The notes under the pieces were generated by a model. It was not told the origin of the DNA. It saw only the letters and a program-made list of their open reading frames with translations, and searched no databases. Below are positions 3 to 35,173 of a stretch of 64,000 bases of DNA, in pieces. The position numbers were made by a program, and so were the translations under genes. The DNA is from Candidatus Woesearchaeota archaeon (GTDB lineage Archaea > Nanobdellota > Nanobdellia > CAYMVK01 > CAYYFB01), in contig CAYYFB010000001.1 of NCBI GenBank assembly GCA_964471255.1, forward strand, positions 110,798 to 174,797, written 5' to 3'. Within the stretch, counting starts at the first letter, position 1. Every line of letters starts with the position of its first letter.

Positions 3-254
3 AAGGGAGGGTACATTCTAGGGGCTTTACTTTTTGTAATTATTATAGCAATACTTGCTCTTTGGTTTCCAATAGGTACAACTCTTTGGGTAGCTCCTAC
101 AAACGTTAGCGGCGGTGGAGAAAATGCTACTTCCCAAGTACCACCAACTACTGCTGCAGCTCAGGCTGTAATATTTGATCCAAAAGTTCTCTTTACTATT
201 CTGTTTCTTGGTAGTTTCGTTATAATAGCCTATATAATAGGGAAAGGAAAGTGA
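3..254 (+). CDS. 3' end of a membrane protein (partial, start outside window)
   Basis: Open frame from the window edge to TGA at 252-254. Two hydrophobic helices flank a Thr/Pro/Ala-rich linker. Stop overlaps the GTG start of the next gene (GTGA). Confidence 0.35.
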   Translation, partial: KGGYILGALLFVIIIAILALWFPIGTTLWVAPTNVSGGGENATSQVPPTTAAAQAVIFDPKVLFTILFLGSFVIIAYIIGKGK

Positions 255-2158
255 TCTATGAAAAGCTGGTAAAGTTAACAGGAAGATTAGTAGATTTTTC
301 CAAGTATCTCCCTAAAGAGGAACTTAAAAAAATAGACATTATTGTTAGAGAGTGTAATTTATCTGTAAGTTCTAAAGAAATAATAAACTCCTCTATTTTT
401 TTAGTAATGTCCCTTGTAATTGTTGGAATACTCCTATTCATTTTTACATTCTCTCTCCTTCCTTTTATAACCTTCTTCCTTTTGGCCTTTATTTCCTATT
501 TTTACGTTAGAAACTACCCAAGCATGCTTTATGAAAGAATTAAATTGAGAAAAGGTGGAAGTTTGTTATTAGCAACTTTTTTTATTGTTATTTACTTAAG
601 ATTAAACCCAAATCTTGAAAGAGCATTAGAATTTGCTGCGAATAATCTAAAAGGCCTTCTAGGGAAGGAGCTTAAGAGTTTAGTCTGGAAAATAAGAAGT
701 GGTATTTACTCATCAGCATTAGAAGCGTTGGATGAATATGCAGAAAAATGGAAGAATGATTTTCCTGAGTTCTTAGACGCTGTTCGATTAATAGAAGGCT
801 CCCTTTATGAAACTTCTGAAGTTAGAAGAAGTGAAATGTTAGATAGAGCTATAGAAAGGATGCTAGAAGGCAGTTTAGAAAGGGCAAATAGGTTTGCAAT
901 AAGAATGAAACAACCAGTAAATGCTATATATATGCTGGGGATTATTTTACCGATATTGCTTACAGTTCTTACTCCCATGTTTTCAGTATTTGCTGGAGAG
1001 CTTTTTGATGTAAATCTTTTATTTGTTCTTTACAACATTCTTCTTCCATTCATAGTTTTCCTCCTAGCTCAAAAAATCCTTGCTAAGAGACCTATTTTTT
1101 TCTCCAGAAGAATCGAAAGTCACCCACTTTGGCCTAAGGAAGGAAAAATCAGGATTTTTAATAAGGAAGTATCTCTCCATCTTATTTTGCTTCTCACATT
1201 CCTACTTTCTTACCTCCCAATAGCCCTAATTACTACCTTCTTCTTCAAAGGCGAATTATCTACTTTCCCACTATATCTATCCTTCGTTTCTATCTTCCTT
1301 TTTTCTTCGCTATCTTCTTTTTTCTTCTGGAAATATTACAAAGAGAGAAGTAAGGAAATAAAAGAAATTGAAGAGGCCGAAAGAAGTTTCTCTGATATAT
1401 GTTTCCAAATAGGAAACAGATTGACTGAAGGTCTTTCTCCCGAAGCCAGTATTCTCAAAGTAAGCGCGTCTGGAGGAGGAAAGAATAAATTCTTGCAAAG
1501 CATAGCAGAAAAAATAGAGAGAATGGGTTTAGATTTAGAAACAGCATGTTTTCATCCCATTTATGGGGCACTAAGATATTTTAGATCGGATATTCTGTCA
1601 TCGGGAATGAAAATCCTAATAGAAGGGATAAAGAAAAGTTTTAGAGAAGCTGCTATAGCTATGATCAACTTCTCCAGGCATCTTAACAATATGAAGAGAG
1701 TAGAACTAAAAATAGAGGACTTACTCGGAGATACTGTATCAAGCATGAAATTTAACATTATGTTTATAATGCCTCTTCTTTTGGGGATCGTTATAGGATT
1801 AACAGCCCTTATATGTGTTGTTTTATGGAATATTAGAGAACAGGTAACTACAATATTTGAAGGGGTTACTGGAGCGGAACCTGCTTTTGGAGGGGCTTTT
1901 CTCTTCGGTTTTTTAAAAATATATGAGGTTTTTCCTCTAGCATTTTTTCAACTAATAATAGGCACTTATCTTCTCCAGGTAGTTTTCATTTGTGCCTACA
2001 TTATCAACGAAATTCTTCATGGTGGTTCTTTTTACCAATTCTGTAAAGAGATAAGCACCATGCTACTCATTTCGGGATTAGTTTACAGCCTGGTCGGCTT
2101 ATTCTCAGCCTTTGGGTTTGTAGGAATAGGTAAGTTTGCTCTCCAGTTAGTGGGATAA
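251..2158 (+). CDS. FlaJ/TadC-like polytopic membrane protein with two T2SS-F-like domains (archaeal type IV filament platform protein)
   Basis: 635 aa. Two repeats of a cytoplasmic helical domain followed by TM helices (around 'RAIERMLEGSLERANRFAIRMKQPVNAIYMLGIILPIL' and 'ILIEGIKKSFREAAIAMINFSRHLNN..IMFIMPLLLGIVIGL'), as in FlaJ/TadC. Confidence 0.55.
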   Translation: MIYEKLVKLTGRLVDFSKYLPKEELKKIDIIVRECNLSVSSKEIINSSIFLVMSLVIVGILLFIFTFSLLPFITFFLLAFISYFYVRNYPSMLYERIKLRKGGSLLLATFFIVIYLRLNPNLERALEFAANNLKGLLGKELKSLVWKIRSGIYSSALEALDEYAEKWKNDFPEFLDAVRLIEGSLYETSEVRRSEMLDRAIERMLEGSLERANRFAIRMKQPVNAIYMLGIILPILLTVLTPMFSVFAGELFDVNLLFVLYNILLPFIVFLLAQKILAKRPIFFSRRIESHPLWPKEGKIRIFNKEVSLHLILLLTFLLSYLPIALITTFFFKGELSTFPLYLSFVSIFLFSSLSSFFFWKYYKERSKEIKEIEEAERSFSDICFQIGNRLTEGLSPEASILKVSASGGGKNKFLQSIAEKIERMGLDLETACFHPIYGALRYFRSDILSSGMKILIEGIKKSFREAAIAMINFSRHLNNMKRVELKIEDLLGDTVSSMKFNIMFIMPLLLGIVIGLTALICVVLWNIREQVTTIFEGVTGAEPAFGGAFLFGFLKIYEVFPLAFFQLIIGTYLLQVVFICAYIINEILHGGSFYQFCKEISTMLLISGLVYSLVGLFSAFGFVGIGKFALQLVG

Positions 2159-2610
2159 TGAGAGGAAGAATTTTTTCCTCAGTAATTATTTTCATCGGGG
2201 TAAGCTTGCTTATTTTCTCTTTCCTAGCAATATTCAAGAGCTTATTTTATATTGCTGAAATGAAAAAAGGATGTAACTACGATTGTGTATGTGAAGAAGG
2301 AGAAAAGGAAGCTGATTGTCCAGATTGTAGTTACAATTTTTCCGACAAAAACTGTCCAGAGGAAGAAGCAAAATATATAGGAAAACATTTGTGTAGCCAT
2401 ACTTACTGCGGGGAGCTTTGTTCCGAGATATGCACGGAAATATCCGAAAAAGGAAGGTACCTTCCAAAGACTAAAGATGAGGTAGATGAACTAATTAACA
2501 AATTTATTGAATCCAATTGCTCATTTATCATCGACCCCTGCGAGTACTTCAATTGCAGTACTACCCCTTGCATAAAATGTCAAATAACAAATGGAAAAGT
2601 GGTTTGTTAG
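2158..2610 (+). CDS. small Cys-rich secreted/anchored protein (possible class-III signal peptide MRG|RIF..)
   Basis: N-terminal basic residue then a hydrophobic helix, followed by a soluble domain with >20 Cys. Start overlaps the upstream stop. Confidence 0.45.
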   Translation: MRGRIFSSVIIFIGVSLLIFSFLAIFKSLFYIAEMKKGCNYDCVCEEGEKEADCPDCSYNFSDKNCPEEEAKYIGKHLCSHTYCGELCSEICTEISEKGRYLPKTKDEVDELINKFIESNCSFIIDPCEYFNCSTTPCIKCQITNGKVVC

Positions 2611-2622
2611 CTAATGTAAAAT

Positions 2623-2760
2623 ATGGAGAGAAAAACCCTTTGGACTATTATTGAAGTAATTGGAGTGATAGGACTTTTAATAGTTGTCTTCTTCTTTTTT
2701 TCTAGAATGTCACCAAAGTTTTTTATACAAAAGCTAACAATGTGGTGGTTGGGAGAATGA
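2623..2760 (+). CDS. micro-ORF encoding a 45-aa single-TM peptide
   Basis: Translates as MERKTLWTIIEVIGVIGLLIVVFFFFSRM... ATGA overlap with the probable ATG (2757) of the next gene. Below the ORF-track size cutoff. Confidence 0.25.
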   Translation: MERKTLWTIIEVIGVIGLLIVVFFFFSRMSPKFFIQKLTMWWLGE

Positions 2761-4109
2761 ATGTTTATCTGCTTGTAATAACCGCTATCGGGGTAGCAGC
2801 ATTGTTGATTTTGCTCCTTGTTTGGAAACCAATTTCAAAAGTGATGATCGAAACTGGTGCTTTTGTCTATCTTTCGCTTGAAGGGGCAAAGAGAGGCCTA
2901 GAGACCCTAGTAACTATGGCGATAAATTTCCTGAATACAGCCATGCTAGCGTATGGGATATATGCAGGAATTATTATAGCTTACACTGCTGCCAAAGCTT
3001 CCAAGTTTGGCCCCTGGGGAACGGTTATAGCTACGGTATTGTGCTCAATGCTTCTTGGGGGTTTTTACTTTGGAGTTATAGCCCCAGTAAAGGAAGAACT
3101 TCTCCATAAGTTTCTTTCTTTTTTTGAAAAGTTAGAGGAGATTGTAAATCCGTTACAGTATTGGCCATATCACCATGTCCACATTCTGTTCCCGACTGAA
3201 GAGGAAAAATTTAAAAGTTACATTAGATCAATTTTTATATCTTACTTTTTCTCCAAAAAATATTTCCCAAAGGGCCTGGTAGCTCATTTTACGATAGAAA
3301 ATGCCACATGCGGGGAGGTTAAAGCATTAATTAATGAAACTTTTATTAAAACGATTTATGACCAAGGCTTTCTTATAATACTTGATGATTGCACATCTCC
3401 ACAGCGGGTAAATCTATCTATAAAAGTAAAATCCACTAACTATATAGGAAATTTGGAAGTAACAGACACTAAAGCCATTAACACTGCAAAAAGAGAATAC
3501 AAGCAATCCTATGGAGAGGAACCCAGCTCTATTAAATGCTATGCTACAACTCTCTTAAATAAGATCGTGTTTGGAGAGAGTAATGTTACTGATTTAAGTA
3601 ACCAGCTCTCGCTTCCGGTTCAAAAGGAAACCCCTATTGAAATAATCGGAATTTTTTGTGAGGGGGAAGATTCTCAAGGAAATACAAGATTTGTAGCGAT
3701 AAATAAACCTGTAATATGCAATACTGAAACTTGCGATCATATTATGAATTCCATCATGGGCCTGCATCCTCTATTACGTGGTTATTTAACAATATCTGTA
3801 GCTCCCTGCCTTATCGATTGTATACCACTCCCTGCCTTGAAGTATGATTTGTACCAACAACTGGAAGCATCTGGAGCTCTGGGTTACAAAGAATTTAACT
3901 TTGAAACAACCCAGAACAATATCAGGAGGGAATATTATATAAAAATCCTCCAAAACATCTCTCTAGATGGAAAGGTTTATCATGTACTCCTACCGGACCA
4001 CCTAAATAGAACTATTCACTTACATGCCCAAAATACAAAGTACGTTATATTGCTTAACTATTTTCAAACGAAAAGGAGAATTTTGATAATTGAAATAAAA
4101 GAAATATGA
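2742..4109 (+). CDS. hypothetical membrane-anchored protein (N-terminal TM helices, Cys-containing ectodomain)
   Basis: 455-aa ORF. Real start probably the ATG at 2757 (MNVYLLVITAIGVAALLILLLVW). Operonic with its neighbours. Confidence 0.5.
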   Translation: MVVGRMNVYLLVITAIGVAALLILLLVWKPISKVMIETGAFVYLSLEGAKRGLETLVTMAINFLNTAMLAYGIYAGIIIAYTAAKASKFGPWGTVIATVLCSMLLGGFYFGVIAPVKEELLHKFLSFFEKLEEIVNPLQYWPYHHVHILFPTEEEKFKSYIRSIFISYFFSKKYFPKGLVAHFTIENATCGEVKALINETFIKTIYDQGFLIILDDCTSPQRVNLSIKVKSTNYIGNLEVTDTKAINTAKREYKQSYGEEPSSIKCYATTLLNKIVFGESNVTDLSNQLSLPVQKETPIEIIGIFCEGEDSQGNTRFVAINKPVICNTETCDHIMNSIMGLHPLLRGYLTISVAPCLIDCIPLPALKYDLYQQLEASGALGYKEFNFETTQNNIRREYYIKILQNISLDGKVYHVLLPDHLNRTIHLHAQNTKYVILLNYFQTKRRILIIEIKEI

Positions 4110-5626
4110 AAGTTTTGGAAGATGTAGTCCTATTTATTGTTATCAGCATTATTTTTGGAGCTCTTATAGCAATCTTATTTAATGTGGCTTTCAGAGCTGC
4201 TGCAGGTAGGAGGATTAAAGAGACCACAAATTTTATAGTATTAACTATTAGAGGATGGCTTGCTTCTGCAGTAAGTTGGCTTTATCAATGGGCCTATGTA
4301 ATTGCAAATATCGCCGACTATATCTATGATACCGCCCTTGGTTGGGGGAAAGGAAAAGCCGCTACTTCGGCAGCAGAAGAAATAGCGGAAAAAGAAGCCG
4401 AAGAGATAAGCGAGGAACTCTTTGCTACAACAAAAAGATGGGCTACTAGGCATTATTCACAACTTTTAAGCAAAGAATTAGATGAGCCTATTAAAAAATT
4501 AAGTGATGATATTGTAGAAACAATCTCAACAAAGGCCACCATAAGTGGAGAGATAGCAGAAAAGATAGGCGGGGAAGTTAAAGATGCTGTAAGGAAAACT
4601 GCCGACGAGATCAGCGAAGAGGCAATGACTCATGCTTTGGCTTGTGTTGAAGCTGAACTCCCTCCTACAATGAGATTCCTCCCTGGAGAGTATATAGGCT
4701 CAATTGTTTATGGTTATTTAAGGCAAAGCATCCCATTCTACATAAAGAAGGCTTTACTAGAGAAACATACTCGTAGACTTGTTTTCAGGTATATTCTTTA
4801 CTTCTATCTCTCCAAACTTGTTACAGACACTTTAAGAAGAACATCGATAATGCTAGCTGGAGGAGAAGTTCCCTTCTTAGGATACGCATTCGAAACAGGC
4901 CTCTTAATTTCTGGCCTTTTCTTGGGAAACCCGTTCTCAACTTTAGTTGATATAATGTTCCCTAAGATATTCTCTGTTCTCGATCATTTTTATTCACCAA
5001 TTTTTGTCATTATTCCTGAGGAAGCTAATCTTACACTTTCCTATTCAGATTATATATTAAAATGCTGGAACATGTATGGGAAGGGAAAAAAGGATATCAA
5101 TTACTTTAGAAATAACCCATTTTTATGTTATTACGGATTTTACGCTGGCAGACAAAAAATTTCTCTTAAAGATGTTATGGATTTCATCTGCAAAGTAAAA
5201 AATGAAACACCCAGAGTAGAGTTTTGTGTTAGGGAGTGCAATGCTGATCTAAGCTCATGCAGTGATTGGTCCTGTACTACAGTTGATTGCAAAAGCTATG
5301 CAGGCATAGATATGGATCTAAGCGGGCATAATGTAACTTTTAAATGGGTAGATAAAGAATTAGATCCTAGTAATCCGACCATTTTAAAGAGGTGGTTATA
5401 TACTAACCTTTTCTATGTTTCTTTTGCAGAATGCATTGAATGGGAGCCTTCCACAATATTTGCTTTGGAAACTGATTTCCATCCCACGGAAGTTCTTGGT
5501 AATATCCCAGCTGCCCTTTTAACAGGATTTGCTTTTCCCAAAGCCTATTGCTCTGAAAAGGATAAAATTATATTTTCAGTAACAAAACTCGAAGTTAACA
5601 TCTTTATTATCAATGTAACACATTAG
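4106..5626 (+). CDS. hypothetical membrane-anchored protein with acidic coiled region and Cys-rich C-terminal domain
   Basis: 506-aa ORF. N-terminal TM. Start overlaps the upstream stop (ATGA). Confidence 0.5.
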   Translation: MKVLEDVVLFIVISIIFGALIAILFNVAFRAAAGRRIKETTNFIVLTIRGWLASAVSWLYQWAYVIANIADYIYDTALGWGKGKAATSAAEEIAEKEAEEISEELFATTKRWATRHYSQLLSKELDEPIKKLSDDIVETISTKATISGEIAEKIGGEVKDAVRKTADEISEEAMTHALACVEAELPPTMRFLPGEYIGSIVYGYLRQSIPFYIKKALLEKHTRRLVFRYILYFYLSKLVTDTLRRTSIMLAGGEVPFLGYAFETGLLISGLFLGNPFSTLVDIMFPKIFSVLDHFYSPIFVIIPEEANLTLSYSDYILKCWNMYGKGKKDINYFRNNPFLCYYGFYAGRQKISLKDVMDFICKVKNETPRVEFCVRECNADLSSCSDWSCTTVDCKSYAGIDMDLSGHNVTFKWVDKELDPSNPTILKRWLYTNLFYVSFAECIEWEPSTIFALETDFHPTEVLGNIPAALLTGFAFPKAYCSEKDKIIFSVTKLEVNIFIINVTH

Positions 5627-5630
5627 AAAC

Positions 5631-5771
5631 ATGGAAACCCAAGTTCTTGTTTTTATTGTGATAGTTGTCCTTTCAGTCTCCGCTTTAGTTCTCTATCTTT
5701 TTGTCCTAAAGGGTGTTAGAATCCAAGGAACTAAATTAGTTAGCCTATTAGAAGGCATCTTCACTCAATAA
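5631..5771 (+). CDS. micro-ORF, 46-aa single-TM peptide
   Basis: Translates as METQVLVFIVIVVLSVSALVLYLFVLKG... Lies inside the operon between larger genes. Confidence 0.25.
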   Translation: METQVLVFIVIVVLSVSALVLYLFVLKGVRIQGTKLVSLLEGIFTQ

Positions 5772-5773
5772 AT

Positions 5774-5902
5774 ATGGGTATTAGGTTTGTCATTGGGATT
5801 GTGCTGGCAGCCCTTCTTATTGCTATAGGGCTCTATGTAATCAATATAGCTTTAAGGAAAGCTAAGGAAGTAGAAAAGAGAATTGAAGCTGAGACAGGAT
5901 GA
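5774..5902 (+). CDS. micro-ORF, 42-aa single-TM peptide
   Basis: Translates as MGIRFVIGIVLAALLIAIGLYVINIALRKAKEVEKRIEAETG. Stop overlaps the ATG at 5899 (ATGA). Confidence 0.25.
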   Translation: MGIRFVIGIVLAALLIAIGLYVINIALRKAKEVEKRIEAETG

Positions 5903-6567
5903 GAGGGATATTAGAAACAGTATTAAATATTATCTTTATTTTACTACTATCTGCTATAGGTTTTGTTAAGATTGCTGGATTAGTTGGCCAAATTTCAAAG
6001 GCAAAAGAAAGAGTAAAACTTATGAGTGTAACATTGGCTTTGGATAGAGGAGATGAATTAATAGAAATCCCCAAGAACACAATCATTCTGTTTATTAATA
6101 TAACCGAGAAAAATAGCACAGAAATTATAAAGTCTATAAATAGAGCATGTGGTGTAAATAACTATTGTATTTGCTCTCTAAGATTTGAAGATATTTCAAT
6201 AGATCCTACAAAAGGATCTTCAACTCTTATGTTTAGGACCAAATATTCTTTAGATGGCCAACCTTTCTACATTGAGTATCCTATGGATAATGACCCTTTT
6301 TTCTCTTGGGAAACATTTCCTTTTATTTTAACAAAGGAAGATGAACTAGTAATTGCAAATCCGCTCACATTCGACCTTTTAAATCTCAATAGTATGTTTT
6401 ACTGTAAAAGGACCGAAAAGAAATTTAAATTATTCGGAGGGGATTACATACGAGGAATAGCCAATTTAAAGGAGAATAATGTCTTACTTGTGCTCAATAA
6501 AACAGAAAGTGGTAATCTTGTACAGCTCTTTGTAATAGAAAGAAGAGGGGTGCCTGGAGAGGCATGA
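5899..6567 (+). CDS. pilin-like protein (class-III signal MRG|ILETV..)
   Basis: 222 aa. Basic residue plus Gly, then a ~20-residue hydrophobic segment, then a soluble domain. Confidence 0.45.
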   Translation: MRGILETVLNIIFILLLSAIGFVKIAGLVGQISKAKERVKLMSVTLALDRGDELIEIPKNTIILFINITEKNSTEIIKSINRACGVNNYCICSLRFEDISIDPTKGSSTLMFRTKYSLDGQPFYIEYPMDNDPFFSWETFPFILTKEDELVIANPLTFDLLNLNSMFYCKRTEKKFKLFGGDYIRGIANLKENNVLLVLNKTESGNLVQLFVIERRGVPGEA

Positions 6568-6689
6568 CAATAAAATTCTTAATCTCAATTCTTCTTGGAA
6601 TTGTTATACTTTCGATTTGCATTCACTTACTTATTTCTATAGGGTTAAAAGGGATTGGTTTACTAAAAGAATTGGGAAGTGAAGGATGA
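6564..6689 (+). CDS. micro-ORF, 41-aa single-TM peptide
   Basis: Translates as MTIKFLISILLGIVILSICIHLLISIGLKG... ATGA overlaps at both ends. Confidence 0.25.
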   Translation: MTIKFLISILLGIVILSICIHLLISIGLKGIGLLKELGSEG

Positions 6690-7312
6690 TTTCCGAAGTC
6701 TTTGGAACTATAATGGAGACCATACTTGCCTCATTAACTCTTATTGGGCTAATCAGTGTTGGGGTCTTTTTTCTTCTTCCAAAGAAAATGGGGGAAATCA
6801 ACCCCCTATACAAATGTATTGCTGAATCTGCAGATTCTTATTTTGCATCTTCTGACTATAAAAGTATATCAAGCCTCTCTCCCGGTGAGCTTGTTGTTAT
6901 TATTAGAAAAGGGGAGCTCCTTGACAATGATGCCTATAATATTTTAATAGATATTGGTATAACGCCCTTCCAGCTAGCTTCCTGTATGGAAGAAGGGTGC
7001 GTCCTGAGATTTATAATCAATAACAAGAGGGCATATTCGTGCCTCTTTTCTTATGCGTACCTACAAAGAAGTTATAAAGGGACTTTTAGGACTAAAACAG
7101 TAGGTTTCTTTAACTCTACTGACTTTTTAGAATGTTTTTCTACATATCTCCCTTTAGTCACCGAAATAAAAATCTGTCCCTCTCCAGATTGTCCATACAC
7201 ACCCACGAATCCTTTAAGACTGGAAGGAAAGAAATTAGTAGGAATTTTCTCAAATTCAACGCTCCAACTTGAATTTAAAAGATATATAACTGGAGAGGTG
7301 ACAATAAAATGA
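6686..7312 (+). CDS. hypothetical N-terminally anchored protein
   Basis: 208 aa. N-terminal TM. Cys-containing. Translationally coupled to neighbours. Confidence 0.45.
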   Translation: MISEVFGTIMETILASLTLIGLISVGVFFLLPKKMGEINPLYKCIAESADSYFASSDYKSISSLSPGELVVIIRKGELLDNDAYNILIDIGITPFQLASCMEEGCVLRFIINNKRAYSCLFSYAYLQRSYKGTFRTKTVGFFNSTDFLECFSTYLPLVTEIKICPSPDCPYTPTNPLRLEGKKLVGIFSNSTLQLEFKRYITGEVTIK

Positions 7313-8052
7313 AAATAATTCCAATCATAATTGTAATCTTTGCTGCTTTATTGTTATTCTCCCTTTTCACGTTTAAAATAACCAAAATATTGGCTATTTT
7401 GACAATAAATATAAACAAAATGACATTAAGAGACACCATCTCCCTTATGAACACATATTCTGCATTCTCACTAGCAGATTTCTCCTTCTTTGGAGAATGG
7501 GAATCTCCCTATAGTAATGAATTAAGTGCTAGTGTAGATACACTGGAAATAAACTATACTGTAGGGCAGTCCAATATAACGACGGATTTGATGGTAACTC
7601 ATACTCTTTTCGCTCAGCCTTCTGGATGGCCAGGTTTTGAGGTAAAAATACCAAAAAAAGGAATTTCAGGTACAGGTTTTGGAAGTGATCTTTGGAAAGC
7701 TCGTCCTTATATGTTTAAAAAAGCTCCTCTTCTGAAAGGAGGAGCTATTAAAAGGGTAGAATTAGGATCGCCTGGCTCGAATAAAGTGATAGAGTATTTT
7801 TTCTTAGTATGTCTTAGAGGTTGGTCATACCGAGAACTACCTTTTGGAAGTAAGATTCAGATCTCCAAAATTTCCGACAACATTCTGGAAGTAAATGACG
7901 TTCCTTACCCTGTAGGTGAAAGCGGGTGTTTGGTGGGGAGTGTCAACAAATGTTCTCGAGAGAGAATAACAAATCAAATAATTTATAGAACACATACAGA
8001 ATTGATTGGAAATAAAGAGATTACTTTTATTGATATAGAGTGCAAATCATGA
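7309..8052 (+). CDS. hypothetical N-terminally anchored protein
   Basis: 247 aa. N-terminal signal/TM MKIIPIIIVIFAALLLFSLF. Confidence 0.45.
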   Translation: MKIIPIIIVIFAALLLFSLFTFKITKILAILTININKMTLRDTISLMNTYSAFSLADFSFFGEWESPYSNELSASVDTLEINYTVGQSNITTDLMVTHTLFAQPSGWPGFEVKIPKKGISGTGFGSDLWKARPYMFKKAPLLKGGAIKRVELGSPGSNKVIEYFFLVCLRGWSYRELPFGSKIQISKISDNILEVNDVPYPVGESGCLVGSVNKCSRERITNQIIYRTHTELIGNKEITFIDIECKS

Positions 8053-8789
8053 AAGCAGGCATACCTGTTTCTCAAATACTCCTTCTCTTGATTTTTGTCT
8101 CTGCTATTTCAATCATGATGCTCATCCCTATTAAATTTCTCTTCACAAAGGGAATCAAATTCAGAACGAAACTCTCAACAGAAACAGCTGGAGATCTTGT
8201 CCTACTTTCCATTCTTATGGATCCAAAGGGTTGGGTAATTTCTGAAGAGAGTTTTGGAAAGCTTTTCAATGCAAGAGTTTATCATGGCATTCTCGATTTA
8301 AAAAAAGTCATTGCAGATTGCTGGTACTATAATTCAAGTACTAACGCTATTAGCTGCTCTTGGGGGAAAGCAAATTATTTTTATATTTCTCCTACAGGAG
8401 ATAAAGTTATTTACCCTTTTATCGTAGGCGGAAAGATAACAAATGTCACTCTTAATCTCAGTGAAGAACTTCAAGAAATAACAAATGACGGCAACGGTTT
8501 TATTGCAAGGATACTCCCTTATAACGAGAGCATAGAGAACACAGGCACCTGTTTTGAAATTTTTTTATATGATCTTTCTCTAGTAAGATATTACATGATT
8601 AACAGCATCTCTCCAATTTCTCCAGAGGAGTTTATTATAGCCAATTTTACTTGGTTAAGAGGAACTGGAAATGTTTCAGACCTTTGTAAAATCCCGAAAT
8701 ATAAAAGAACCGTGGTGATCGCCGCTACGGATGGTAAAGGCCATTATTTGCTTTCCCTATTAGGTGTCAATGCGTATGCTAAAGAATAA
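8040..8789 (+). CDS. pilin-like protein (possible class-III signal MKAG|IPVSQILLLLIFV)
   Basis: 249 aa. N-terminal hydrophobic segment after KAG. Soluble domain with N-glycosylation-like sequons. Confidence 0.4.
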   Translation: MQIMKAGIPVSQILLLLIFVSAISIMMLIPIKFLFTKGIKFRTKLSTETAGDLVLLSILMDPKGWVISEESFGKLFNARVYHGILDLKKVIADCWYYNSSTNAISCSWGKANYFYISPTGDKVIYPFIVGGKITNVTLNLSEELQEITNDGNGFIARILPYNESIENTGTCFEIFLYDLSLVRYYMINSISPISPEEFIIANFTWLRGTGNVSDLCKIPKYKRTVVIAATDGKGHYLLSLLGVNAYAKE

Positions 8790-9231
8790 GAGGGGTGTGC
8801 TTACTTTTTTTGATCCTATCTTAATATCCTTTATCATCCTTATCTATGGAATTGGAATATATTTCGCACTTAAAGAGGAAATGAAAGCAGTAATAGTAAC
8901 AAGATACGAATTATCAAGAGAAATTCAAGAAATGTCTATAAGAAGCGTATCTCAAATTGATTATATACGCCCAATCTCTCTGAAGGATGAAGAACATATA
9001 ATCGAAAAGATATTTAAACTTAATTATACAACATACCCCGAAAGTTTTCTTGAAAGATATTATAAAGAATTATCCGACGTTAGAAGGATGTGTAATACGC
9101 CTCTTTACTCATCTAGACCTTTTTGTCAATACCTTAACTCTTTCATCTCTTCTGGTGTGCAGAAAGGGTATTCTCAAGGCAAATGCGTTCCTCAATATGG
9201 TGCATTTAAAGGAGTTATTTGTTTGAAATAA
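8764..9231 (+). CDS. pilin-like protein (KNKRG|VLTFFDPILISFIILIY)
   Basis: 155 aa. Charged n-region, then Gly, then a hydrophobic helix, typical of a class-III signal peptide. Confidence 0.4.
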   Translation: MSMRMLKNKRGVLTFFDPILISFIILIYGIGIYFALKEEMKAVIVTRYELSREIQEMSIRSVSQIDYIRPISLKDEEHIIEKIFKLNYTTYPESFLERYYKELSDVRRMCNTPLYSSRPFCQYLNSFISSGVQKGYSQGKCVPQYGAFKGVICLK

Positions 9232-9232
9232 T

Positions 9233-10324
9233 GTGAGAGGTATTGTCGTCTCAATTATCATTGGAATACTCGCCTTCCTGATTTTAGTAATAACCTTCCT
9301 GACCGCCAAACATCGTGCTAAGGTCACCATTTCTGCTGAGAAGGGGCCATATGTTGATGTTGTAAAAATTTCTACTCTAGAAGACTATTATAGAAACCCC
9401 TTAGACCAAGAAAGAAGCTATGCTCTGGAACGAGCCTTATACTATGTTGGTTCATTCGGTGGCTGGTATAATACTTCTGGAGCGGTTCCAAATCTTACTA
9501 ATCCTTGGTCCTTTCTCCCGGAACCCCTTCTATTTATATGGAGAAAAAAAGGAACTTTATTTATTCCATCTCTAAAGAATGTTTCCCACTCCATGGAGAC
9601 TTTTCTACTAGGATACTATAGCTACGCTAACCTAAAGAGGATGGATCCTAGCGTATACATGCAGATCTACCCTATAACACTTATCCGACCCGAACTCTTA
9701 GAAATATATCCAAAAGTCAACCTAGGAAATGAAACAAAGGTCGTTTGGCTAGGAAGAAGCTTACGTCTTAAGGCGAGAATAGGGGAAAGTTATGGTTATG
9801 TAGAATTTTATCCTATGATAACAGCAAGATCCAGAGCATCAGTAATAGCTCTTTATAATTTTGGATCAAATCTTACGAAAGATATTTCTCCTTTTCAACA
9901 GAGATTCGAAAGCAGTCTTGAAGAGCTGGGTGGGGTTAATGTGCTTGTGCCATTACTTATTCATAACAAAGGAGATTATGTAGAAAAAAAACCAAAATAT
10001 GACTGGATGACTGCCCTTATGGTATACAATCAGAAATTCCTTAGAGAAGAACTAGGAATACAGGACATCTATTCTTTTTTGGATTCTATAGGATGCAGTA
10101 GTGAGTTTCATGGTCAGAAGTATTATAGATGTAACTCCTCAGAGATTCCGGCCTGTGATGAGAGCAAGTGCAAAGAAATCGCGTGGAAAGTACTGAAATA
10201 TCTCTATTACAGGGCTTTTGATGAATCATCCTATTCATTTTCTTCACCAAGCGAAAATAGGTTCTTTAGAACAATTCCTATCGAGTTAAACACTACAGTT
10301 AAAGTATGGAAAGAGGTACCCTAA
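9233..10324 (+). CDS. pilin-like protein (MRG|IVVSIIIGILAFLILV) with large ectodomain
   Basis: 363 aa. Class-III-like N-terminus. Confidence 0.45.
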   Translation: MRGIVVSIIIGILAFLILVITFLTAKHRAKVTISAEKGPYVDVVKISTLEDYYRNPLDQERSYALERALYYVGSFGGWYNTSGAVPNLTNPWSFLPEPLLFIWRKKGTLFIPSLKNVSHSMETFLLGYYSYANLKRMDPSVYMQIYPITLIRPELLEIYPKVNLGNETKVVWLGRSLRLKARIGESYGYVEFYPMITARSRASVIALYNFGSNLTKDISPFQQRFESSLEELGGVNVLVPLLIHNKGDYVEKKPKYDWMTALMVYNQKFLREELGIQDIYSFLDSIGCSSEFHGQKYYRCNSSEIPACDESKCKEIAWKVLKYLYYRAFDESSYSFSSPSENRFFRTIPIELNTTVKVWKEVP

Positions 10325-13300
10325 TGAAAACTTTAAAAGATTCTCTGAAAATATTGTCGCTTTTATGTTTTTTCTTTATGTTTTCAGAAACGAAACTACT
10401 ATTTTCACAAGAATGTTCTTGTCTACAGGATTACTGTATAGAGAATGGGACAGCAGCTCAATTCGAAATGCCTCCGGCTTATGTCTATAATGTTTTCAAT
10501 GAGACGTCTCTATTTAATATTTCCATTGGAGGGTACCTTGTTTTTAATGACTCAAACAACTATGTAATAGGAGGAGTTATAGACCAAAATATCCCCCCAA
10601 TGAACAAAACCCCGGTGATTTATCAATCAACATCTGATTTCTTGATAAACTACACCTGTATTATTAATTGGAGCAAAATTTACGAGAAAAGTTGCGATGA
10701 ATTGGGATTAACTTCTCATAAGTGCGTTTGTGGAGATGAGGGAAATGAGTATATCCGCTCCAGGGTTTGTGTGTTGGGCTCGGCCATATACACTTGTAAC
10801 AGCAACCCCAAAGATATTGCCTGCGAGGAAGGAGAAAGTCCTTATTCCCACTGTGTCTATAGTGGAGAGCTTTATGAGAATAACTCTGTCATTGAGATCA
10901 ATTACTCACTTAAAAGAACCGTCTCTCTGGGAACCTCCCCTCTACCTTTCGAATATATGTATGCTACAGAAGATACTCCAATTTATAGAGGAAATTACTC
11001 TATTTTTGAAAGAGGTGGGGTAATATACGTTAATTACAGTGAAGAAAGAAAAATTCCAATAATTTGCCATAATGGAATCTGGTACGGAACATGCGGTAAT
11101 AACATCTGTGAAGATTGGGAAAATCCAGGAAATTGCCCTGAAGATTGTTGTAAAAATTGCCGCTTTGTAAGGACAGGAGAGTTAACTCAGTACTGTATTG
11201 GTTATGGAGGATGTCAAATGCCTCCAGAGTGTCTTTATAAAGATATTGTGTGTCTATCCAAAATACTAGCAGTGCATTTGGATGATGTCATATATGAAGA
11301 AAAGAAAAGATATCTTTTTGCTTGCTCTTCCAGAACACTAATTAATTGTAGTGAAAGTATTGCAGAAAAGGTTGTTGAATATTTCTTCCAATCTAGTCCC
11401 TATACAGGGACTATCAAAGAAAGTGTTATTAAGGTTTTTAAGGGTTTATCCAAGGGAGTATGTGAAGATAATGCTGGATGTATACTAGATGAATGGAGAG
11501 ATCCTGATTTGATGAAAGAAGTTTGTGAGGAAGACTTCCTTGCTGATTGGATAGAACAATCTTATACTCCCCTTACTAATTATTCGCAATGGAGGGAGCA
11601 CAAAAGTTTTCCATTTAACTTTGCAAGAGAAGTAAACGTTACTTTAAATTCCCATGAGCCTATTTATGATGTTGTCATTAGCTTTTCATTTAATAGCAAG
11701 GAATTAATATCCAAAGGAAAAATGCGGAATGACTGCGGGGATATTAGGATAGTCGATGATAGTTTCAATTATCTTCCTTACTATATTGATCAAAATACCT
11801 GTAATACAACCAATACCATCGTGTATGTTAAGGTTCCTATCCTAAAGCCAGGGAGCAATCACTTATGGTTACTTTATGGTAATCCCTCAATAACATCGGC
11901 TAGTAACCCTTCAGCTGTCTTTATGTTCTTTCAGGATTTTGAAGATGAACAAGAGTCGAAGCAGCAATTAACTTTCTACAGATGGGCGGGAGATGCTTCT
12001 AAAGAATGTGTTATTTCTGGAGGGTACCTCTATCTTGCAACCAACTCTGGAGAGGGTGGATGTATTGCATTTTTAAAGGAGAATATAAATCCTGCTAACA
12101 AAATAATTAGTTTTTCATTTAAACAAGAAACTACAAAAGAGTCGCAACCTATAGTTGCTCTCTTCCTTGATAAAGAAGAGGAAAAATATAAAAACTTAGG
12201 TTATTGCTCCGCGGAATTCAGTGGGGCTGGGATGGCTTGTCCCAATCCTTCTTCTTCCCTATCAGAATGTCAATACGTGAGGGGATATGGAATTGGAGCT
12301 GGAGAAACCATCTATCTCTTTCTCCCTCCAAACATGACTATAGGAAACTTAAAGGTAGAATTTGTTCCTCATCATATAGAAAAAAATCAATGGCATGAAC
12401 TAATTGCAAAAACGTGGAGAAATAGGTTTGAAGTTTACTTAGATGGAGAGTTGGTTTTGAAAGTAACCGGAATAAAGTGGTTTGGCCTAAGAAAAATTGC
12501 CATAGGAGGATCAAAAATAGAAGAAGGGAAAATACTGATAGATAATATTAAGATAGAAAAAAACATTGGAGCAAATATTAGCACAACTTTGGGAAGTGAA
12601 ATAGCTCTCAATCCTCTTTTCTCGATAGGTGCAAATGAAGGGGTGTTTCTAAACTCCTCAGAAAGCTCTGTAGGAAGTTCATATCTTTTCTATACAATAC
12701 CTTCCGAGCTAATAAAAAAGGGAAAAGTTGACATAAAATGGAAGTTGATCTGTTCTGGAATGTGCAAAGGAATCAAGGCAGAAGCCTATATCATTAAAGA
12801 AGTCCTTAATAGAAAGAATGATGGTTCTTTTCCAGAAAAAAGTGATCTTCCCTATGGAAAGGTCAAGCTTGGTTCTTTCCCTACTTATTCTGTTGGAAAA
12901 GAAGTGGTCTCCTCCTTTTTTGTACCTTTAGAAAGCTATCCAACCTACATTACTTTGCTCGTCGCATTAGAAGACAAAAATCCAAAAGAAGGTGCAGCGC
13001 TTTTGATAGATTTTATTAAAGTAAGGAATTACATAACCACGTTTTTAATGAATTTCACAAAAGCGCAAGTTGTACTAGAGAGATCAGGTACTGTCGGAGA
13101 TTATGGCAAGGTCAGATTTAAAGCAATATCAAAAAAAGAATTTTGCTGTGGGGATGATTTTGGTGAATTCTCTCTAATTGAGAGATATATGGACTATTTC
13201 GGCCCTTTATCTTCACAAAGGAAAGTTTGTTCCTCATCTCCTTTCTTCTGTATTATAACTTTAGAGGATGGATTAAATCTTATATACCCAGAAGGTTCAA

Positions 13301-13740
13301 GAATAAAAATAAAAGCAAATACAAACTCTTCAGACTGCAACATCTCGAAAGTTTTCGAACTTGCAAAACTTGTGTTGATAAATTCTAGCTACTATGAGGA
13401 ACTGAATGACACATATACAAGATGCCAAGGAACGGTAAACTACACTGTATATGACTATGAAAGCAATAAAGAATATGATTTAAAGGATGAAATTACAGTA
13501 AGAGTGGGTGGAGAGAGTTACACGTCTGATCTTTTCTCTTCTTTGTTTTTCCCAGGCAATTACACATGTAATGATGGGGTTTGGATCAATGAAGAAATTA
13601 ACGTAACAACTCTACAACTCCCCATTAAGTTCTCGTTTGGGATCCTAGAATGGTTTAATATCTCGAATCCAGGTGAATTTACTGAGGAATATTACAAAAA
13701 ATTTATATATAGAAGTGAAGAAGTCAAAAGGTGGACTTAA
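10306..13740 (+). CDS. giant Cys-rich secreted protein, candidate adhesin/tip protein of the locus
   Basis: 1144 aa. Signal peptide (MKTLKDSLKILSLLCFFFMFSETKLLFSQ). >60 Cys concentrated in the N-terminal half. Many N-x-S/T sequons. No catalytic motif recognised. Confidence 0.55.
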   Translation: MERGTLMKTLKDSLKILSLLCFFFMFSETKLLFSQECSCLQDYCIENGTAAQFEMPPAYVYNVFNETSLFNISIGGYLVFNDSNNYVIGGVIDQNIPPMNKTPVIYQSTSDFLINYTCIINWSKIYEKSCDELGLTSHKCVCGDEGNEYIRSRVCVLGSAIYTCNSNPKDIACEEGESPYSHCVYSGELYENNSVIEINYSLKRTVSLGTSPLPFEYMYATEDTPIYRGNYSIFERGGVIYVNYSEERKIPIICHNGIWYGTCGNNICEDWENPGNCPEDCCKNCRFVRTGELTQYCIGYGGCQMPPECLYKDIVCLSKILAVHLDDVIYEEKKRYLFACSSRTLINCSESIAEKVVEYFFQSSPYTGTIKESVIKVFKGLSKGVCEDNAGCILDEWRDPDLMKEVCEEDFLADWIEQSYTPLTNYSQWREHKSFPFNFAREVNVTLNSHEPIYDVVISFSFNSKELISKGKMRNDCGDIRIVDDSFNYLPYYIDQNTCNTTNTIVYVKVPILKPGSNHLWLLYGNPSITSASNPSAVFMFFQDFEDEQESKQQLTFYRWAGDASKECVISGGYLYLATNSGEGGCIAFLKENINPANKIISFSFKQETTKESQPIVALFLDKEEEKYKNLGYCSAEFSGAGMACPNPSSSLSECQYVRGYGIGAGETIYLFLPPNMTIGNLKVEFVPHHIEKNQWHELIAKTWRNRFEVYLDGELVLKVTGIKWFGLRKIAIGGSKIEEGKILIDNIKIEKNIGANISTTLGSEIALNPLFSIGANEGVFLNSSESSVGSSYLFYTIPSELIKKGKVDIKWKLICSGMCKGIKAEAYIIKEVLNRKNDGSFPEKSDLPYGKVKLGSFPTYSVGKEVVSSFFVPLESYPTYITLLVALEDKNPKEGAALLIDFIKVRNYITTFLMNFTKAQVVLERSGTVGDYGKVRFKAISKKEFCCGDDFGEFSLIERYMDYFGPLSSQRKVCSSSPFFCIITLEDGLNLIYPEGSRIKIKANTNSSDCNISKVFELAKLVLINSSYYEELNDTYTRCQGTVNYTVYDYESNKEYDLKDEITVRVGGESYTSDLFSSLFFPGNYTCNDGVWINEEINVTTLQLPIKFSFGILEWFNISNPGEFTEEYYKKFIYRSEEVKRWT

Positions 13741-17025: not shown

Positions 17026-17127
17026 GGGGCCGTAGCCTAGTGGTAGGGCGTCGGGCTCCAGAAGAATCTGGAGCGCTGATAAGCTGAAGAAACCCGAAGG
17101 TCCGGGGTTCGAATCCCCGCGGCCCCA
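17026..17127 (+). tRNA. tRNA-Trp(CCA) with ~30-nt intron in the anticodon loop
   Basis: Acceptor GGGGCCG/CGGCCCC. Anticodon stem TCGGG/CCCGA. Loop CUCCAG[intron AAGAAUCUGGAGCGCUGAUAAGCUGAAGAA]A. T-arm GGTTCGAATCC. Confidence 0.85.
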
Positions 17128-23262: not shown

Positions 23263-23727
23263 ATGTTAGATAATGCTTTAATAATCATGGTAGAGGATTA
23301 TGAAATTTTTGTGGCACCAGAAGTGAGAAAGGTTAAGAAGGCTATTAAGGAAATTTCAAAAGATATTTCTGACCTTAAGGAGAGTGTAGAATCCAGTATA
23401 TCAAAATTTATCGATGCTATTGGCTCTCTTAAATCGGAGGTCGAGAAAATGTCTACTGTTTCACTAAATCTCATAGCAAAGATGACCGAATTGATGATAA
23501 AAATCACCGACTTAACCAAAGAAACAAAAGAGTTAGTTGAAATCATAAAGATAGCCGGAGAGGAAACTACAAAGCCATCTGAAGTCGGGATAAAGGAGGG
23601 AATAAGTAAAGAAATCCTAGAAGAAATATCCGCTCTAAAAAAAGAAATAGAGGAGATTAAAGAAAAACTCAAAGAAAAAAGCTTTTCTGATAAACGACCA
23701 GTTGTCCTGCCTAAGATAGTAAAATGA
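23263..23727 (+). CDS. coiled-coil protein at head of pilus operon
   Basis: 154 aa. Heptad-rich, acidic. No TM. Operonic with the pilin gene at 23724. Confidence 0.45.
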   Translation: MLDNALIIMVEDYEIFVAPEVRKVKKAIKEISKDISDLKESVESSISKFIDAIGSLKSEVEKMSTVSLNLIAKMTELMIKITDLTKETKELVEIIKIAGEETTKPSEVGIKEGISKEILEEISALKKEIEEIKEKLKEKSFSDKRPVVLPKIVK

Positions 23728-25045: not shown

Positions 25046-25047
25046 TT

Positions 25048-26832: not shown

Positions 26833-26833
26833 T

Positions 26834-28761: not shown

Positions 28762-28825
28762 GCTGACCCCGGCAAGATATATTTCCTACCTTTACTTCTT
28801 TTCTCTCCTCCTATTTTCAATCTAT

Positions 28826-30234: not shown

Positions 30235-30236
30235 TG

Positions 30237-35122: not shown

Positions 35123-35173
35123 TAAATGGCTATAGAGAAGCGGCAAAAATTTTCTTTGGGTTAGCAGTTTTCC

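Follow-up and report, generated by a model that had tools for sequence, protein, structure and literature searches.

The operon that opens a 64,000-nucleotide stretch of contig CAYYFB010000001.1 from a Candidatus Woesearchaeota archaeon (hereafter, the window) is read here, with moderate confidence, as encoding those components of a type IV filament machine that lie in the membrane and at the surface of a thermophilic DPANN archaeon of the Nanoarchaeota/Woesearchaeota type; together with its widespread parent cluster, it probably builds an adhesive surface filament. To our knowledge, every DPANN archaeon in culture needs contact with a host cell, and the means of attachment are largely unknown; the operon and its parent cluster offer a specific candidate for such an attachment machine, whose parts can be listed: a platform that is conserved, a family of accessory membrane proteins, tip proteins that evolve fast, and a giant adhesin. 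The derivation from type IV filaments that had been proposed in an earlier note on this DNA is supported by a genuine platform protein, pilin-like N-termini, and a terminal, secreted, adhesin-like giant. The accompanying claim of a distinct, undescribed system is supported only in part: the subunits are orphans and the structure is not an archaellum, but the platform family occurs at 580 or more DPANN loci, and the plan, in which the gene for a platform is joined by those for a large DUF2341 protein and for no fewer than five minor-pilin-like products, has already been published for clade-1/Epd pili (PMC4858521); the operon is better described as a divergent, fast-evolving form of a known type IV pilus-like cluster. 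No new principle is revealed, because the architecture follows the known type IV filament plan. The divergence of pilin-like subunits to orphan status, judged against 1.84 billion representative proteins, while gene order persists, is nevertheless a warning for homology-based censuses of archaeal pili.

Operon layout and the platform protein

Between positions 251 and 13740, on the + strand, fifteen tightly coupled genes overlap by 1-26 nt or are spaced by 12 nt or less, with ATGA-type 4-nt overlaps at 4106, 5899, 6564, 6686, and 7309. The open reading frames lie where the earlier note had placed them, and its thirteen-plus co-directional, coupled genes were borne out; its gene count, however, was too low. 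Every apparent gap is occupied by a small ORF that had been missed, each encoding a micro-protein with one transmembrane (TM) helix: s1 (2623-2760, 45 aa), s2 (5631-5771, 46 aa), s3 (5774-5902, 42 aa), and s4 (6564-6689, 41 aa). Furthermore, the operon starts 5' of the window, where three co-directional genes for polytopic membrane proteins (467, 241, and 192 aa) precede g1, the first complete gene of the window, bringing the total to 18 genes over ~16.2 kb. The last of the three stops at window position 253, its final 83 codons (g0, 1-253, + strand, read in frame 3) falling within the window and its full gene lying at 11874-12452 of the upstream sequence (L083). The operon is thus confirmed as real and as larger than had been stated. 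The four micro-proteins are kept by position in the only related genome, represented by loci L002 and L084: a 52-aa single-TM ORF stands for s1 in L002, where s2 and s3 also have counterparts (s3 begins MG/I and its counterpart MG/W), and s4 has a clear counterpart at 46-189 of L084.

The product of g1 (251-2158) is a 635-aa platform protein of the T2SS-F/PilC/FlaJ-TadC superfamily, from a divergent, DPANN-wide family, and provides the operon with the polytopic, T2SS-F-bearing platform of a type IV filament system. Its match to Pfam T2SSF (E 8.4e-7; 29.4 bits, above the cut-off of 25.2 bits) spans only aa 114-242; the second half aligns with the other T2SSF protein of the window at an hhalign probability of only 83%, so that the former description of a double T2SS-F protein is plausible, though weakly shown. 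The HMM of the DPANN platform family (c0) recognizes g1 with an E-value of 9e-161, every invariant residue of that family is retained, and g1, ~90 aa shorter than the DPANN cluster platforms (~720 aa), is by sequence their ortholog. The three upstream proteins were shown to be lineage versions of the accessory family (c4) that accompanies this platform; the 192-aa protein matches c4 with an hhalign probability of 95% and an HMM E-value of 2.8e-7, and the 467-aa protein matches the c4 HMM with an E-value of 3e-11.

The g1 family is found at no fewer than 580 loci in DPANN genomes, its context having been counted on 80 fetched loci. A T2SSE ATPase of ~760 aa lies nearby in 64 of these, the c4 family in 42, an A24 peptidase in 25, and at least three class-III-like genes in 46. 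This cluster, which carries no name, occurs in Woesearchaeota, Pacearchaeota, and Nanoarchaeota, and combines the ATPase and the ~720-aa platform with tandem polytopic c4 genes, many 'KKG' pilin-like genes, and the A24 peptidase.

Anchored products and the terminal giant

All 14 products encoded downstream of g1 carry an N-terminal hydrophobic segment, as had been claimed, but two of them are not simply anchored: g3 (2742-4109; 455 aa, or 450 aa if translation starts at the ATG at 2757) has at least two hydrophobic segments and a C-terminal ectodomain with cysteines, and g4 (4106-5626; 506 aa) has an N-terminal TM helix, an acidic helical region, more hydrophobic segments, and a Cys-rich C-terminal domain. 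Both look polytopic; g6 (6686-7312; 208 aa, 7 Cys) and g7 (7309-8052; 247 aa) are bitopic. The five class-III-like N-termini named earlier, of the form [KR][GA]/hydrophobic, were all recovered at the level of the motif, in g2 (2158-2610; 150 aa, MRG/RIFSS, with the putative cut after G, and an ectodomain with 16 Cys), g5 (5899-6567; 222 aa, MRG/ILETV), g8 (8040-8789; 249 aa, or 246 aa from the ATG at 8049, MKAG/IPVSQ), g9 (8764-9231; 155 aa, NKRG/VLTFFD), and g10 (9233-10324; 363 aa, MRG/IVVSIII); in all five a TM helix follows, and g5, g9, and g10 are classed as pilin-like proteins. The 3-residue leaders of these products, M[KR]G or KRG, are the same as those of the pilins of this genome that match the archaeal pilin N-terminal model TIGR02537. 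Of the 66 other ORFs of the window, about 5 have the motif: three are a canonical pilin or a gene of a second pilus locus, and two are probable false positives (one match falls within the platform gene at 27688, the other in an ORF of 79 aa at 52404).

Comparison with the related genome shows that the set and order of g2-g11 are conserved while the sequences evolve fast. Synteny from g0 to g11, micro-proteins included, holds across L002 and L084, with 49% identity for the platform and 19-40% for the other products, including 40% for g2 and 27% for g4 (both in L002), 30% for g5, and 29% for g8. In Nanoarchaeota, FlaJ/TadC homologues and surface proteins anchored at the N-terminus have been described as diverging rapidly (PMC6142677). 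The [KR]G motif is kept in both genomes only for g9, whose relative carries GRRG/FVNVFE, and for g10, whose four C-terminal cysteines are also conserved; the processing of g2, g5, and g8 is therefore uncertain, the g2 ortholog being devoid of the RG motif. Such starts are present in the relatives of other genes, namely g3 (MRG/MLST, in L002), g6 (MKG/TVD, in L084), and g7 (MRG/VQI, in L084). The best class III candidate of the operon is g10, which has one relative only (40% identity) among 1.84 billion representative proteins. In Pfam and NCBIfam searches, g2-g10 matched neither TIGR02537 nor any pilin family, and neither sequence-profile nor profile-profile comparisons related them significantly to the DPANN pilin-like clusters (c5-c10, c17, c20), the sole link being a non-significant match of g4 to the c7 HMM (E ~0.003). 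The products g2-g10 are orphans restricted to this lineage.

The ectodomains had been described as uniformly Cys-rich, with many N-glycosylation sequons. The latter are indeed enriched 3.3-fold (15.8 versus 4.8 per 1000 aa), in keeping with surface exposure, but the cysteine content was overstated: it reaches 10.7% in g2, 3.8% in g11, and 3.4% in g6, whereas the other products, at 1.1-2.6%, are to be set against a background of 1.3%; pooled over the products, it is 2.8%. The stated lack of catalytic motifs agrees with searches of Pfam, NCBIfam, and PHROGs, which detected no catalytic family in the operon products.

The operon ends with g11 (10306-13740; 1144 aa, or 1138 aa from a start at 10324), which, in support of its earlier description as a signal-peptide-bearing, adhesin-like giant, has a Sec-like signal peptide, no membrane anchor, 44 Cys, 27 sequons, and a match to Pfam DUF2341 (E 1e-19). 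A central DUF2341/LamG-like module is flanked by Cys-rich N- and C-terminal modules, and the protein is a mosaic when compared to two consecutive genes of L084, the first encoding a 708-aa DUF2341 protein and the second an 897-aa Cys-rich protein homologous to both terminal modules. Only five relatives were found in the database, and none of the 80 mesophilic DPANN loci has a DUF2341 giant. DUF2341 proteins have been proposed as PilY1-like tip adhesins of Epd/clade-1 archaeal pili (PMC4858521), and the DUF2341 gene of the Methanococcus maripaludis epd locus was recovered repeatedly in a screen for transformation-defective mutants (PMC10133366). By analogy, g11 is a candidate PilY1-like tip adhesin.

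Proposed assembly in trans and alternative readings

A T2SS-E ATPase was detected neither in the operon, nor within 12 kb upstream, nor as far as the convergent downstream gene; the FlaI-type ATPase that had been suggested just upstream of the window is not there, its place being taken by the polytopic membrane genes. A FlaI-like ATPase, an A24-type peptidase, and two canonical pilins are instead encoded 10-23 kb downstream of the operon. The only T2SS-E ATPase of the window (25048-26832, + strand; Pfam T2SSE E 2e-34, plus PilB3_C; NCBIfam FlaI 420 bits; DPANN c1 ATPase HMM E 1.2e-34) lies 11 kb past the operon end, in a second pilus locus (23263-30234), beside a split platform (26834-27691 and 27688-28761) with T2SSF in both halves. 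The candidate class III signal peptidase (35236-36015, - strand) matches the DPANN c13 (Peptidase_A24) HMM (E 3e-13; phmmer E 1e-9) and, in Pfam, weakly matches Arc_PepC_II; the A24 peptidase of a type IV filament system is thus present in trans, outside the operon. Both canonical pilins, at 23724-24167 and at 36852-37286 (+ strand; MRG/VSPVVATILLL, a possible major subunit), score above the cut-off of the NCBIfam model TIGR02537 (arch_flag_Nterm).

In the assembly that we propose, the peptidase encoded 21 kb away would cut after [KR]G in g9 and g10 as a minimum, and perhaps also in g2, g5, and g8, and the cleaved proteins would be pulled from the membrane on the platform, powered in trans by a T2SS-E ATPase, which could be the FlaI-like enzyme at 25048 or another encoded elsewhere in the genome. 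The pilin-like products would form the priming or tip complex of a pilus on which the secreted, anchorless g11 may ride as an adhesin, a step with parallels in the fimU-pilVWX-pilY1 arrangement of bacteria and in the model published for Epd/clade-1 pili. As for the filament body, its subunits may be the two canonical pilins (23724 and 36852) or a small operon product. The likely role would be attachment to a host cell or surface, and disulfide-rich, heavily glycosylated ectodomains would fit a hot extracellular environment.

Several observations are counted against this main reading. The operon has no ATPase in cis and the only one in the window adjoins its own platform pair; [KR]G is conserved in g9 and g10 only, g2-g10 match no pilin family, and g3 and g4 look polytopic; finally, no major pilin can be named, and the predicted structure of one pilin candidate has a pLDDT of 39.7.

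The size of most products (150-506 aa), large for filament subunits, and the lack of a small canonical major pilin in the operon would also suit a bindosome- or pseudopilus-like display, in which no extended pilus forms and a short, cell-bound structure presents large Cys-rich glycoproteins that would recognize host surfaces or capture substrates. An archaeal type IV filament machinery that displays binding proteins with class III signals has been described, in the form of the Bas system (bioRxiv 10.64898/2026.04.22.720090), and the window ATPase scores 234 bits to BasE. However, Pfam and NCBIfam reveal no substrate-binding or enzyme domain in any product, and a series of pilin-like genes followed by an anchorless adhesin is a better match to minor-pilin/PilY1 operons; this display is considered unlikely.

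Still less probable is a use of the same machine chiefly as a competence pilus, by which a genome-reduced symbiont would take up environmental or host DNA. In the M. maripaludis screen mentioned above, the genes disrupted by transposons included those of the epd pilus, the DUF2341 gene of the locus, and one for an M50 peptidase (PMC10133366); an M50-like gene, which the DPANN cluster has as a conserved neighbour, lies at 44086-44739 of the window. Nevertheless, no ComEC, DprA, or DNA-binding domain was detected in the operon with Pfam or NCBIfam, and a giant Cys-rich glycoprotein suits adhesion better, although the two roles are not exclusive.

A similarly low probability is given to the operon making no working filament, its products being ordinary signal-anchored envelope proteins co-transcribed with a platform-like membrane protein that would have lost its ATPase partner and possibly acts as a scaffold or transporter. 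The missing ATPase in cis, the poor conservation of most class III motifs, and the lack of pilin-family homology are in keeping with this idea. Against it stand the retention in g1 of all residues invariant in its family, which has a linked ATPase at 64 of 80 loci, and the gene order and content kept between two genomes at only 19-49% identity, which points to selection; in addition, 4 of 14 products have exactly the M[KR]G leaders of bona fide pilins, and an origin of these by chance is unlikely, since outside pilus loci the motif was seen only in the two probable false positives. A variant archaellum, or motility organelle, is effectively refuted, since the faint match of g5 to an NCBIfam archaeal flagellin model (E 0.07) is far below cut-off, no operon product exceeds the Pfam or NCBIfam cut-offs for ArlB, ArlH, ArlF/G, ArlCDE, or ArlX, in agreement with the earlier note, and the g1 family has no match to ArlJ, whereas the other platform pair of the window does.

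Comparison with known filament systems

The adhesive type IV filament favoured here shares with the archaellum (arl/fla) the platform, ATPase, and peptidase superfamily common to both, and differs from it in an operon without archaellins, ArlH, ArlF/G, or ArlCDE/X. Neither AapA/B or UpsA/B pilins nor AapX or UpsX were found in the operon, the NCBIfam UpsA, UpsB, and UpsF models matching only the other locus of the window and the solo pilin. In bacteria, the type IVa fimU-pilVWX-pilY1 operon, which is cited in PMC4858521, joins minor-pilin genes to that of an adhesin; here, likewise, the genes for several pilin-like proteins precede that of a large secreted one, which has a Sec signal but lacks a pilin N-terminus. 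However, no sequence homology exists beyond a DUF2341 connection asserted in published work, the envelope is that of an archaeal cell, and the platform is encoded within the operon.

The clade-1 pili, or system 1 (Epd of M. maripaludis and loci of Thermococcales and Methanobacteriales), are similar in multi-gene complexity, with at least five minor-pilin-like genes bearing class III signals (here at motif level only) and large DUF2341 proteins. In M. maripaludis, too, neither the ATPase nor the platform is linked to the pilin locus (PMC10133366). The definition of system 1, however, requires a platform encoded by two separate, TadC-like genes, whereas g1 is a single, fused gene (635 aa) and the split pair belongs to the other locus; Pfam and NCBIfam detected no clade-1 ATPase, EppA-type peptidase, or FleN/MinD ATPase in the operon, and no homology of its pilin-like products to Epd families. 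It is of note that the split-platform locus of the window resembles system 1 or 4A more than the operon does.

The DPANN cluster itself shares the orthologous c0 platform, the adjoining tandem c4-family polytopic genes, and the ensuing run of anchored, class-III-like genes, and homologues of its A24 peptidase and T2SS-E ATPase lie in the same genomic region. In contrast to the cluster, the platform here has neither the c1 ATPase nor the peptidase nor the c2/c3 cytoplasmic genes next to it, g2-g10 show no detectable homology to its pilin-like families, four micro-proteins are interleaved, and a DUF2341 giant is present. The platform has no NCBIfam match, most members have no Pfam match, and the 'KKG/x..E' leaders are unlike those of canonical archaeal pilins; for these reasons we tentatively raise the possibility, short of an even chance, that the platform/ATPase/c4 cluster is a distinct, unclassified branch of archaeal type IV filament systems, of which the window operon would be a thermophile-specific, ATPase-uncoupled offshoot, its subunits replaced by lineage-private, disulfide-rich glycoproteins and a mosaic DUF2341 adhesin, forming a rapidly evolving host-recognition organelle that sets host range.

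Extent and setting of the operon

ORF calling in the window reveals eleven plus-strand ORFs of 150-1144 aa between 251 and 13740: a 635-aa platform protein (g1, 251-2158), nine downstream products (g2-g10, 2158-10324), and a 1144-aa giant protein (g11, 10306-13740). Every apparent gap is filled by a small plus-strand ORF (2623-2760, 5631-5771, 5774-5902, and 6564-6689), each encoding a micro-protein of 41-46 aa with one hydrophobic helix; two of these four ORFs are also present in a separate ENA gene call of the same contig. Adjacent genes overlap by 1-26 nt or are spaced by 12 nt or less, which makes translational coupling plausible. Window bases 1-253 correspond, in frame 3, to the 3' end of a membrane-protein gene, and a JGI contig (L083) identical to the window over bases 1-40 carries three co-directional polytopic membrane genes (467, 241, and 192 aa) immediately upstream of g1; the operon therefore starts before the window. 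Together, the eleven ORFs, the four small ORFs, and the three upstream genes form a unit of 18 genes and ~16.2 kb, so that the "thirteen-plus" co-directional genes of an earlier note on this DNA were correctly described in terms of direction and undercounted. At its 3' limit, the operon converges on an S-adenosylmethionine synthetase gene (13737-14909). The only other copy of the region, an ENA contig (L001/L082), terminates within g1, and neither g1 nor P0001, a database entry 100% identical to it, returned a record when looked up by exact sequence.

Beyond the three upstream genes, L083 carries a divergent block that encodes a 130-aa TM protein, a 306-aa AAA+ ATPase with a C-terminal winged-helix (MarR/TrmB-like) domain (L083 8414-9334, minus strand), and a GTPase. 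The 306-aa protein is found at the same position in the sole related genome (contig L002, 1043-1966, minus strand), with 51% identity, and may be a regulator of the operon. Base composition is uniform between the operon and the remaining window, with no foreign-island signature, and a PHROGs search matched no viral family; a mobile or viral element was rejected, as no signal supported it.

Neighboring genes in the window include an unsplit reverse gyrase of 1198 aa (18928-22524, plus strand), a thermosome subunit (17192-18841, plus strand), and the PolD small subunit, which point to an archaeon that is probably a thermophile; the first two are indicative of thermophily or hyperthermophily in this DPANN organism, whose GC content is low (35%). 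The window also harbors genes for RNase P RNA (38659-38926) and 5S rRNA (30235-30354), both on the minus strand, as well as a 102-nt plus-strand tRNA (17026-17127), found by Rfam and not by ARAGORN, which probably is an intron-containing archaeal tRNA. Three consecutive large plus-strand ORFs (55899-58436, 845 aa; 58486-62127, 1213 aa; 62154-64000, >615 aa), with signal-peptide-like N-termini and low Cys, may encode S-layer or other envelope proteins.

The platform protein and a DPANN-wide cluster

The platform protein g1 scores above the Pfam T2SSF gathering threshold over residues 114-242 only (E 8.4e-7), and, with an hhalign probability of 83%, its C-terminal half can be aligned to the T2SSF protein encoded elsewhere in the window. 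The double T2SS-F platform proposed previously is thus backed by Pfam in its first part, and by this hhalign match only in its second. No NCBIfam model matched g1, and a PDB sequence search with the platform profile gave nothing significant. These matches place g1, as a divergent member, among the platform proteins of the type IV filament superfamily, and it is orthologous to the platform of a cluster found across DPANN archaea, whose family HMM it matches with an E of 9e-161. Its homologues include a close group of four (49-53% identity) and a distant group of about 80 DPANN proteins of ~720 aa (26-33% identity), from Woesearchaeota, Pacearchaeota, Nanoarchaeota, and Micrarchaeota.

At least 580 platform-family loci were identified across genomes representing individual species, and the best 80 of them were subjected to ORF clustering. 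The platform is accompanied by a ~760-aa protein in 64 of these 80 loci (Pfam T2SSE E 4.7e-17), by a Peptidase_A24 protein in 25, and by two or three tandem copies of a ~180-aa polytopic membrane protein, family c4, in 42; two small cytoplasmic proteins (c2 and c3) are also companions of the platform. Furthermore, these loci carry strings of proteins in which an N-terminal '..NKKG' precedes a hydrophobic helix, and in many of them an acidic residue comes shortly after the Gly. When class III leaders are called with a relaxed rule, 23% of the genes across the 80 loci score positive, and 46 loci have at least three positives. The cluster is a genuine type IV filament cluster, conserved among DPANN archaea. 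A literature search found no paper specific to it, only general statements that DPANN or Nanoarchaeota encode type IV pili. In some mesophilic loci (L021, 3824-8647; L069, 3541-8754), very large proteins (1607-1737 aa, family c88), each preceded by a ~630-aa protein (c48), adjoin the platform gene; a DUF2341 search of these c88 and c48 proteins found none, and they may represent local adhesin equivalents.

The operon itself is a derived member of this unnamed cluster. Two of the proteins encoded upstream (467 and 192 aa) match c4 (hhalign 95%; HMM E 3e-11 and 2.8e-7), and conserved DPANN neighbors have counterparts between 33 and 44 kb of the window, all on the minus strand: family c16 (32887-33186), the PRC-barrel family c11 (43811-44137), and the M50-like family c9 (44086-44739), which flank the pilus cluster in mesophilic DPANN. 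The window is thus a loosened version of the conserved neighborhood.

Neither the operon nor the 12 kb preceding it encodes a T2SS-E ATPase, so that the FlaI-type ATPase for which the earlier note proposed to check immediately upstream of the window is not there. The sole T2SS-E ATPase in the window (25048-26832) is matched by the DPANN ATPase-cluster HMM (E 1.2e-34), scores 420 bits with the FlaI model, and has a PilB3_C domain. It belongs to a second, canonical type IV pilus locus (23263-30234, plus strand) that encodes a coiled-coil protein, a pilin (23724) starting MKG/ISPIV (the slash marking the predicted cleavage site), a 293-aa protein, this ATPase, two separate T2SS-F proteins (285 and 357 aa), and lastly a 163-aa protein and a 306-aa protein that starts MKG/FYIY; in its split platform, this locus is similar to system 1 or 4A loci described in the literature. 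A solo canonical pilin gene (36852-37286, plus strand; MRG/VSPVV) lies near that of an A24-type prepilin peptidase candidate (35236-36015, minus strand), matched by the DPANN A24 cluster HMM with an E of 3e-13, and both canonical pilins pass TIGR02537. About 10 nt at the 3' end of the peptidase ORF are shared with a tRNA-Gly gene (35173-35246, minus strand).

Downstream products and the giant protein

Searches of Pfam, NCBIfam, and PHROGs matched no family to g2-g10, and their comparison with every conserved DPANN cluster and with one another (by phmmer, HMM-versus-sequence, and profile-profile methods) detected only TM-helix similarity, so that neither paralogy nor homology to the mesophilic pilin-like genes is indicated. 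Apart from itself, g10 has a single relative, at 40% identity, in a set of 1.84 billion representative proteins. Collinear orthologues of g2-g11 are found in one metagenome-assembled genome (GCA_964622145.1, contigs L002 and L084), where each of the four micro-proteins likewise has a counterpart at the equivalent position; the platforms are 49% identical, g2 and g10 share 39-40% with their orthologues, and the remaining products 19-30%. The operon subunits thus show extreme turnover, and the same pattern of conserved order and fast sequence divergence has been described for FlaJ/TadC homologues and N-terminally anchored surface proteins in a Nanoarchaeota population study (PMC6142677).

As previously noted, an N-terminal hydrophobic helix is present on every downstream product; g3 and g4 have additional hydrophobic segments. 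Class III-like leaders directly precede the helix in g2, g5, and g10 (MRG), g9 (NKRG), and g8 (MKAG), and are the same three-residue leaders as those of the two pilins that pass TIGR02537 in this genome. About 5 of the 66 ORFs outside the operon also have the motif; three are pilus-related (23724, 29314, and 36852), and two look like false positives. In the related genome it is carried by g3, g6, g7, g9, and g10, so that, of the five class III N-termini originally proposed, all have the motif here and only g9 and g10 have it in both genomes. The strict FlaFind pattern is presumably fitted by g10 alone. In terms of their N-termini, g9 and g10 are good class III candidates, g2, g5, and g8 are possible ones, and the remaining products may be unprocessed bitopic or polytopic partners. 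An AF2 model of g10 from a two-sequence alignment was unusable (pLDDT 39.7).

N-glycosylation sequons reach 3.3x background density in the ectodomains, in agreement with the abundance reported earlier, and pooled Cys is 2.8% versus a 1.3% background; the Cys-rich character ascribed to all ectodomains holds for g2, g6, and g11 only. Four Cys are present in each of g5, g7, g8, g9, and g10, which would be consistent with a pair of disulfide bonds in each protein and with a location at the surface.

The giant protein g11 carries a Sec-type signal peptide and lacks a membrane anchor; it contains 44 Cys and 27 sequons, and residues 476-550 form a DUF2341 domain. Databases contain five relatives, and a PDB sequence search gave nothing significant. 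Its N-terminal (37-419) and C-terminal (947-1143) parts match an 897-aa protein of the related genome, and its center matches a second protein of that genome, of 708 aa and with DUF2341, whose gene immediately precedes that of the 897-aa protein; g11 is thus a mosaic. A DUF2341 protein is absent from all 80 mesophilic DPANN loci. The motif CCGDDxGE occurs twice in g11, twice in its relative P0085, and also in a 776-aa secreted Cys-rich protein (L083 4611-6941, minus strand) located ~5-7.6 kb upstream of the window, which suggests a Cys-rich module shared by several surface proteins of the lineage.

A proposed pilus-like machine and its alternatives

The reading that we favor, with somewhat better than even confidence, is that the operon encodes a type IV pilus-like machine with a minor-pilin/adhesin module. 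The peptidase at 35236-36015 would trim at least g9 and g10, and g1 would load the trimmed subunits into a priming or tip complex, helped by c4-family proteins and perhaps by g3, g4, and the micro-proteins. Assembly would be powered by a T2SS-E ATPase from another locus, the anchorless g11 would be carried at the tip as an adhesin, and the shaft could possibly be made of canonical pilins. Of this model, the identity of the platform, its family context, the synteny, the motifs, and the DUF2341 domain are shown by the sequence comparisons; cleavage, the formation of a filament, the partner ATPase, the position of g11 at the tip, and attachment to a host are inferred. In clade-1 pilus loci (Methanococci and Thermococci), large DUF2341 proteins occur with at least five minor pilins and have been proposed by Makarova, Koonin, and Albers to be PilY1-like tip adhesins (PMC4858521). 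In M. maripaludis, epdJKL, which encode the platform pair and the ATPase, are located away from the epd locus (PMC10133366); these reports provide precedents for an adhesin role of g11 and for an ATPase in trans, respectively.

A non-filamentous display complex is an alternative that we consider unlikely. Lower still is the likelihood that the same machine serves in DNA uptake, a role touched upon by a transformation-defect screen in M. maripaludis, where the epd-locus DUF2341 gene was found repeatedly to carry insertions and others fell in an M50 peptidase gene (PMC10133366). Equally improbable is a non-functional remnant or a set of ordinary envelope proteins. An archaellum is scarcely conceivable and was rejected, its defining parts being missing, as the earlier note had claimed. 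Membership of Epd/system 1 was also rejected, the platform being a single fused gene and not a pair.

The pilus-like machine would make the operon a concrete candidate attachment organelle, potentially for host attachment, in a thermophilic DPANN archaeon. The earlier view that nothing similar is known is weakened by the DPANN-wide cluster and by the published clade-1 model. That the whole DPANN cluster represents an unclassified branch of archaeal type IV filaments is a tentative suggestion that we consider doubtful. Unlike that cluster, the operon has neither an adjacent ATPase nor the cluster's pilin families; like it, the operon has an orthologous platform and c4 matches upstream, with A24 and T2SS-E ATPase homologues in the window. 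By its platform, and by the candidate peptidase provided in trans, it qualifies as a type IV filament (TFF) system.
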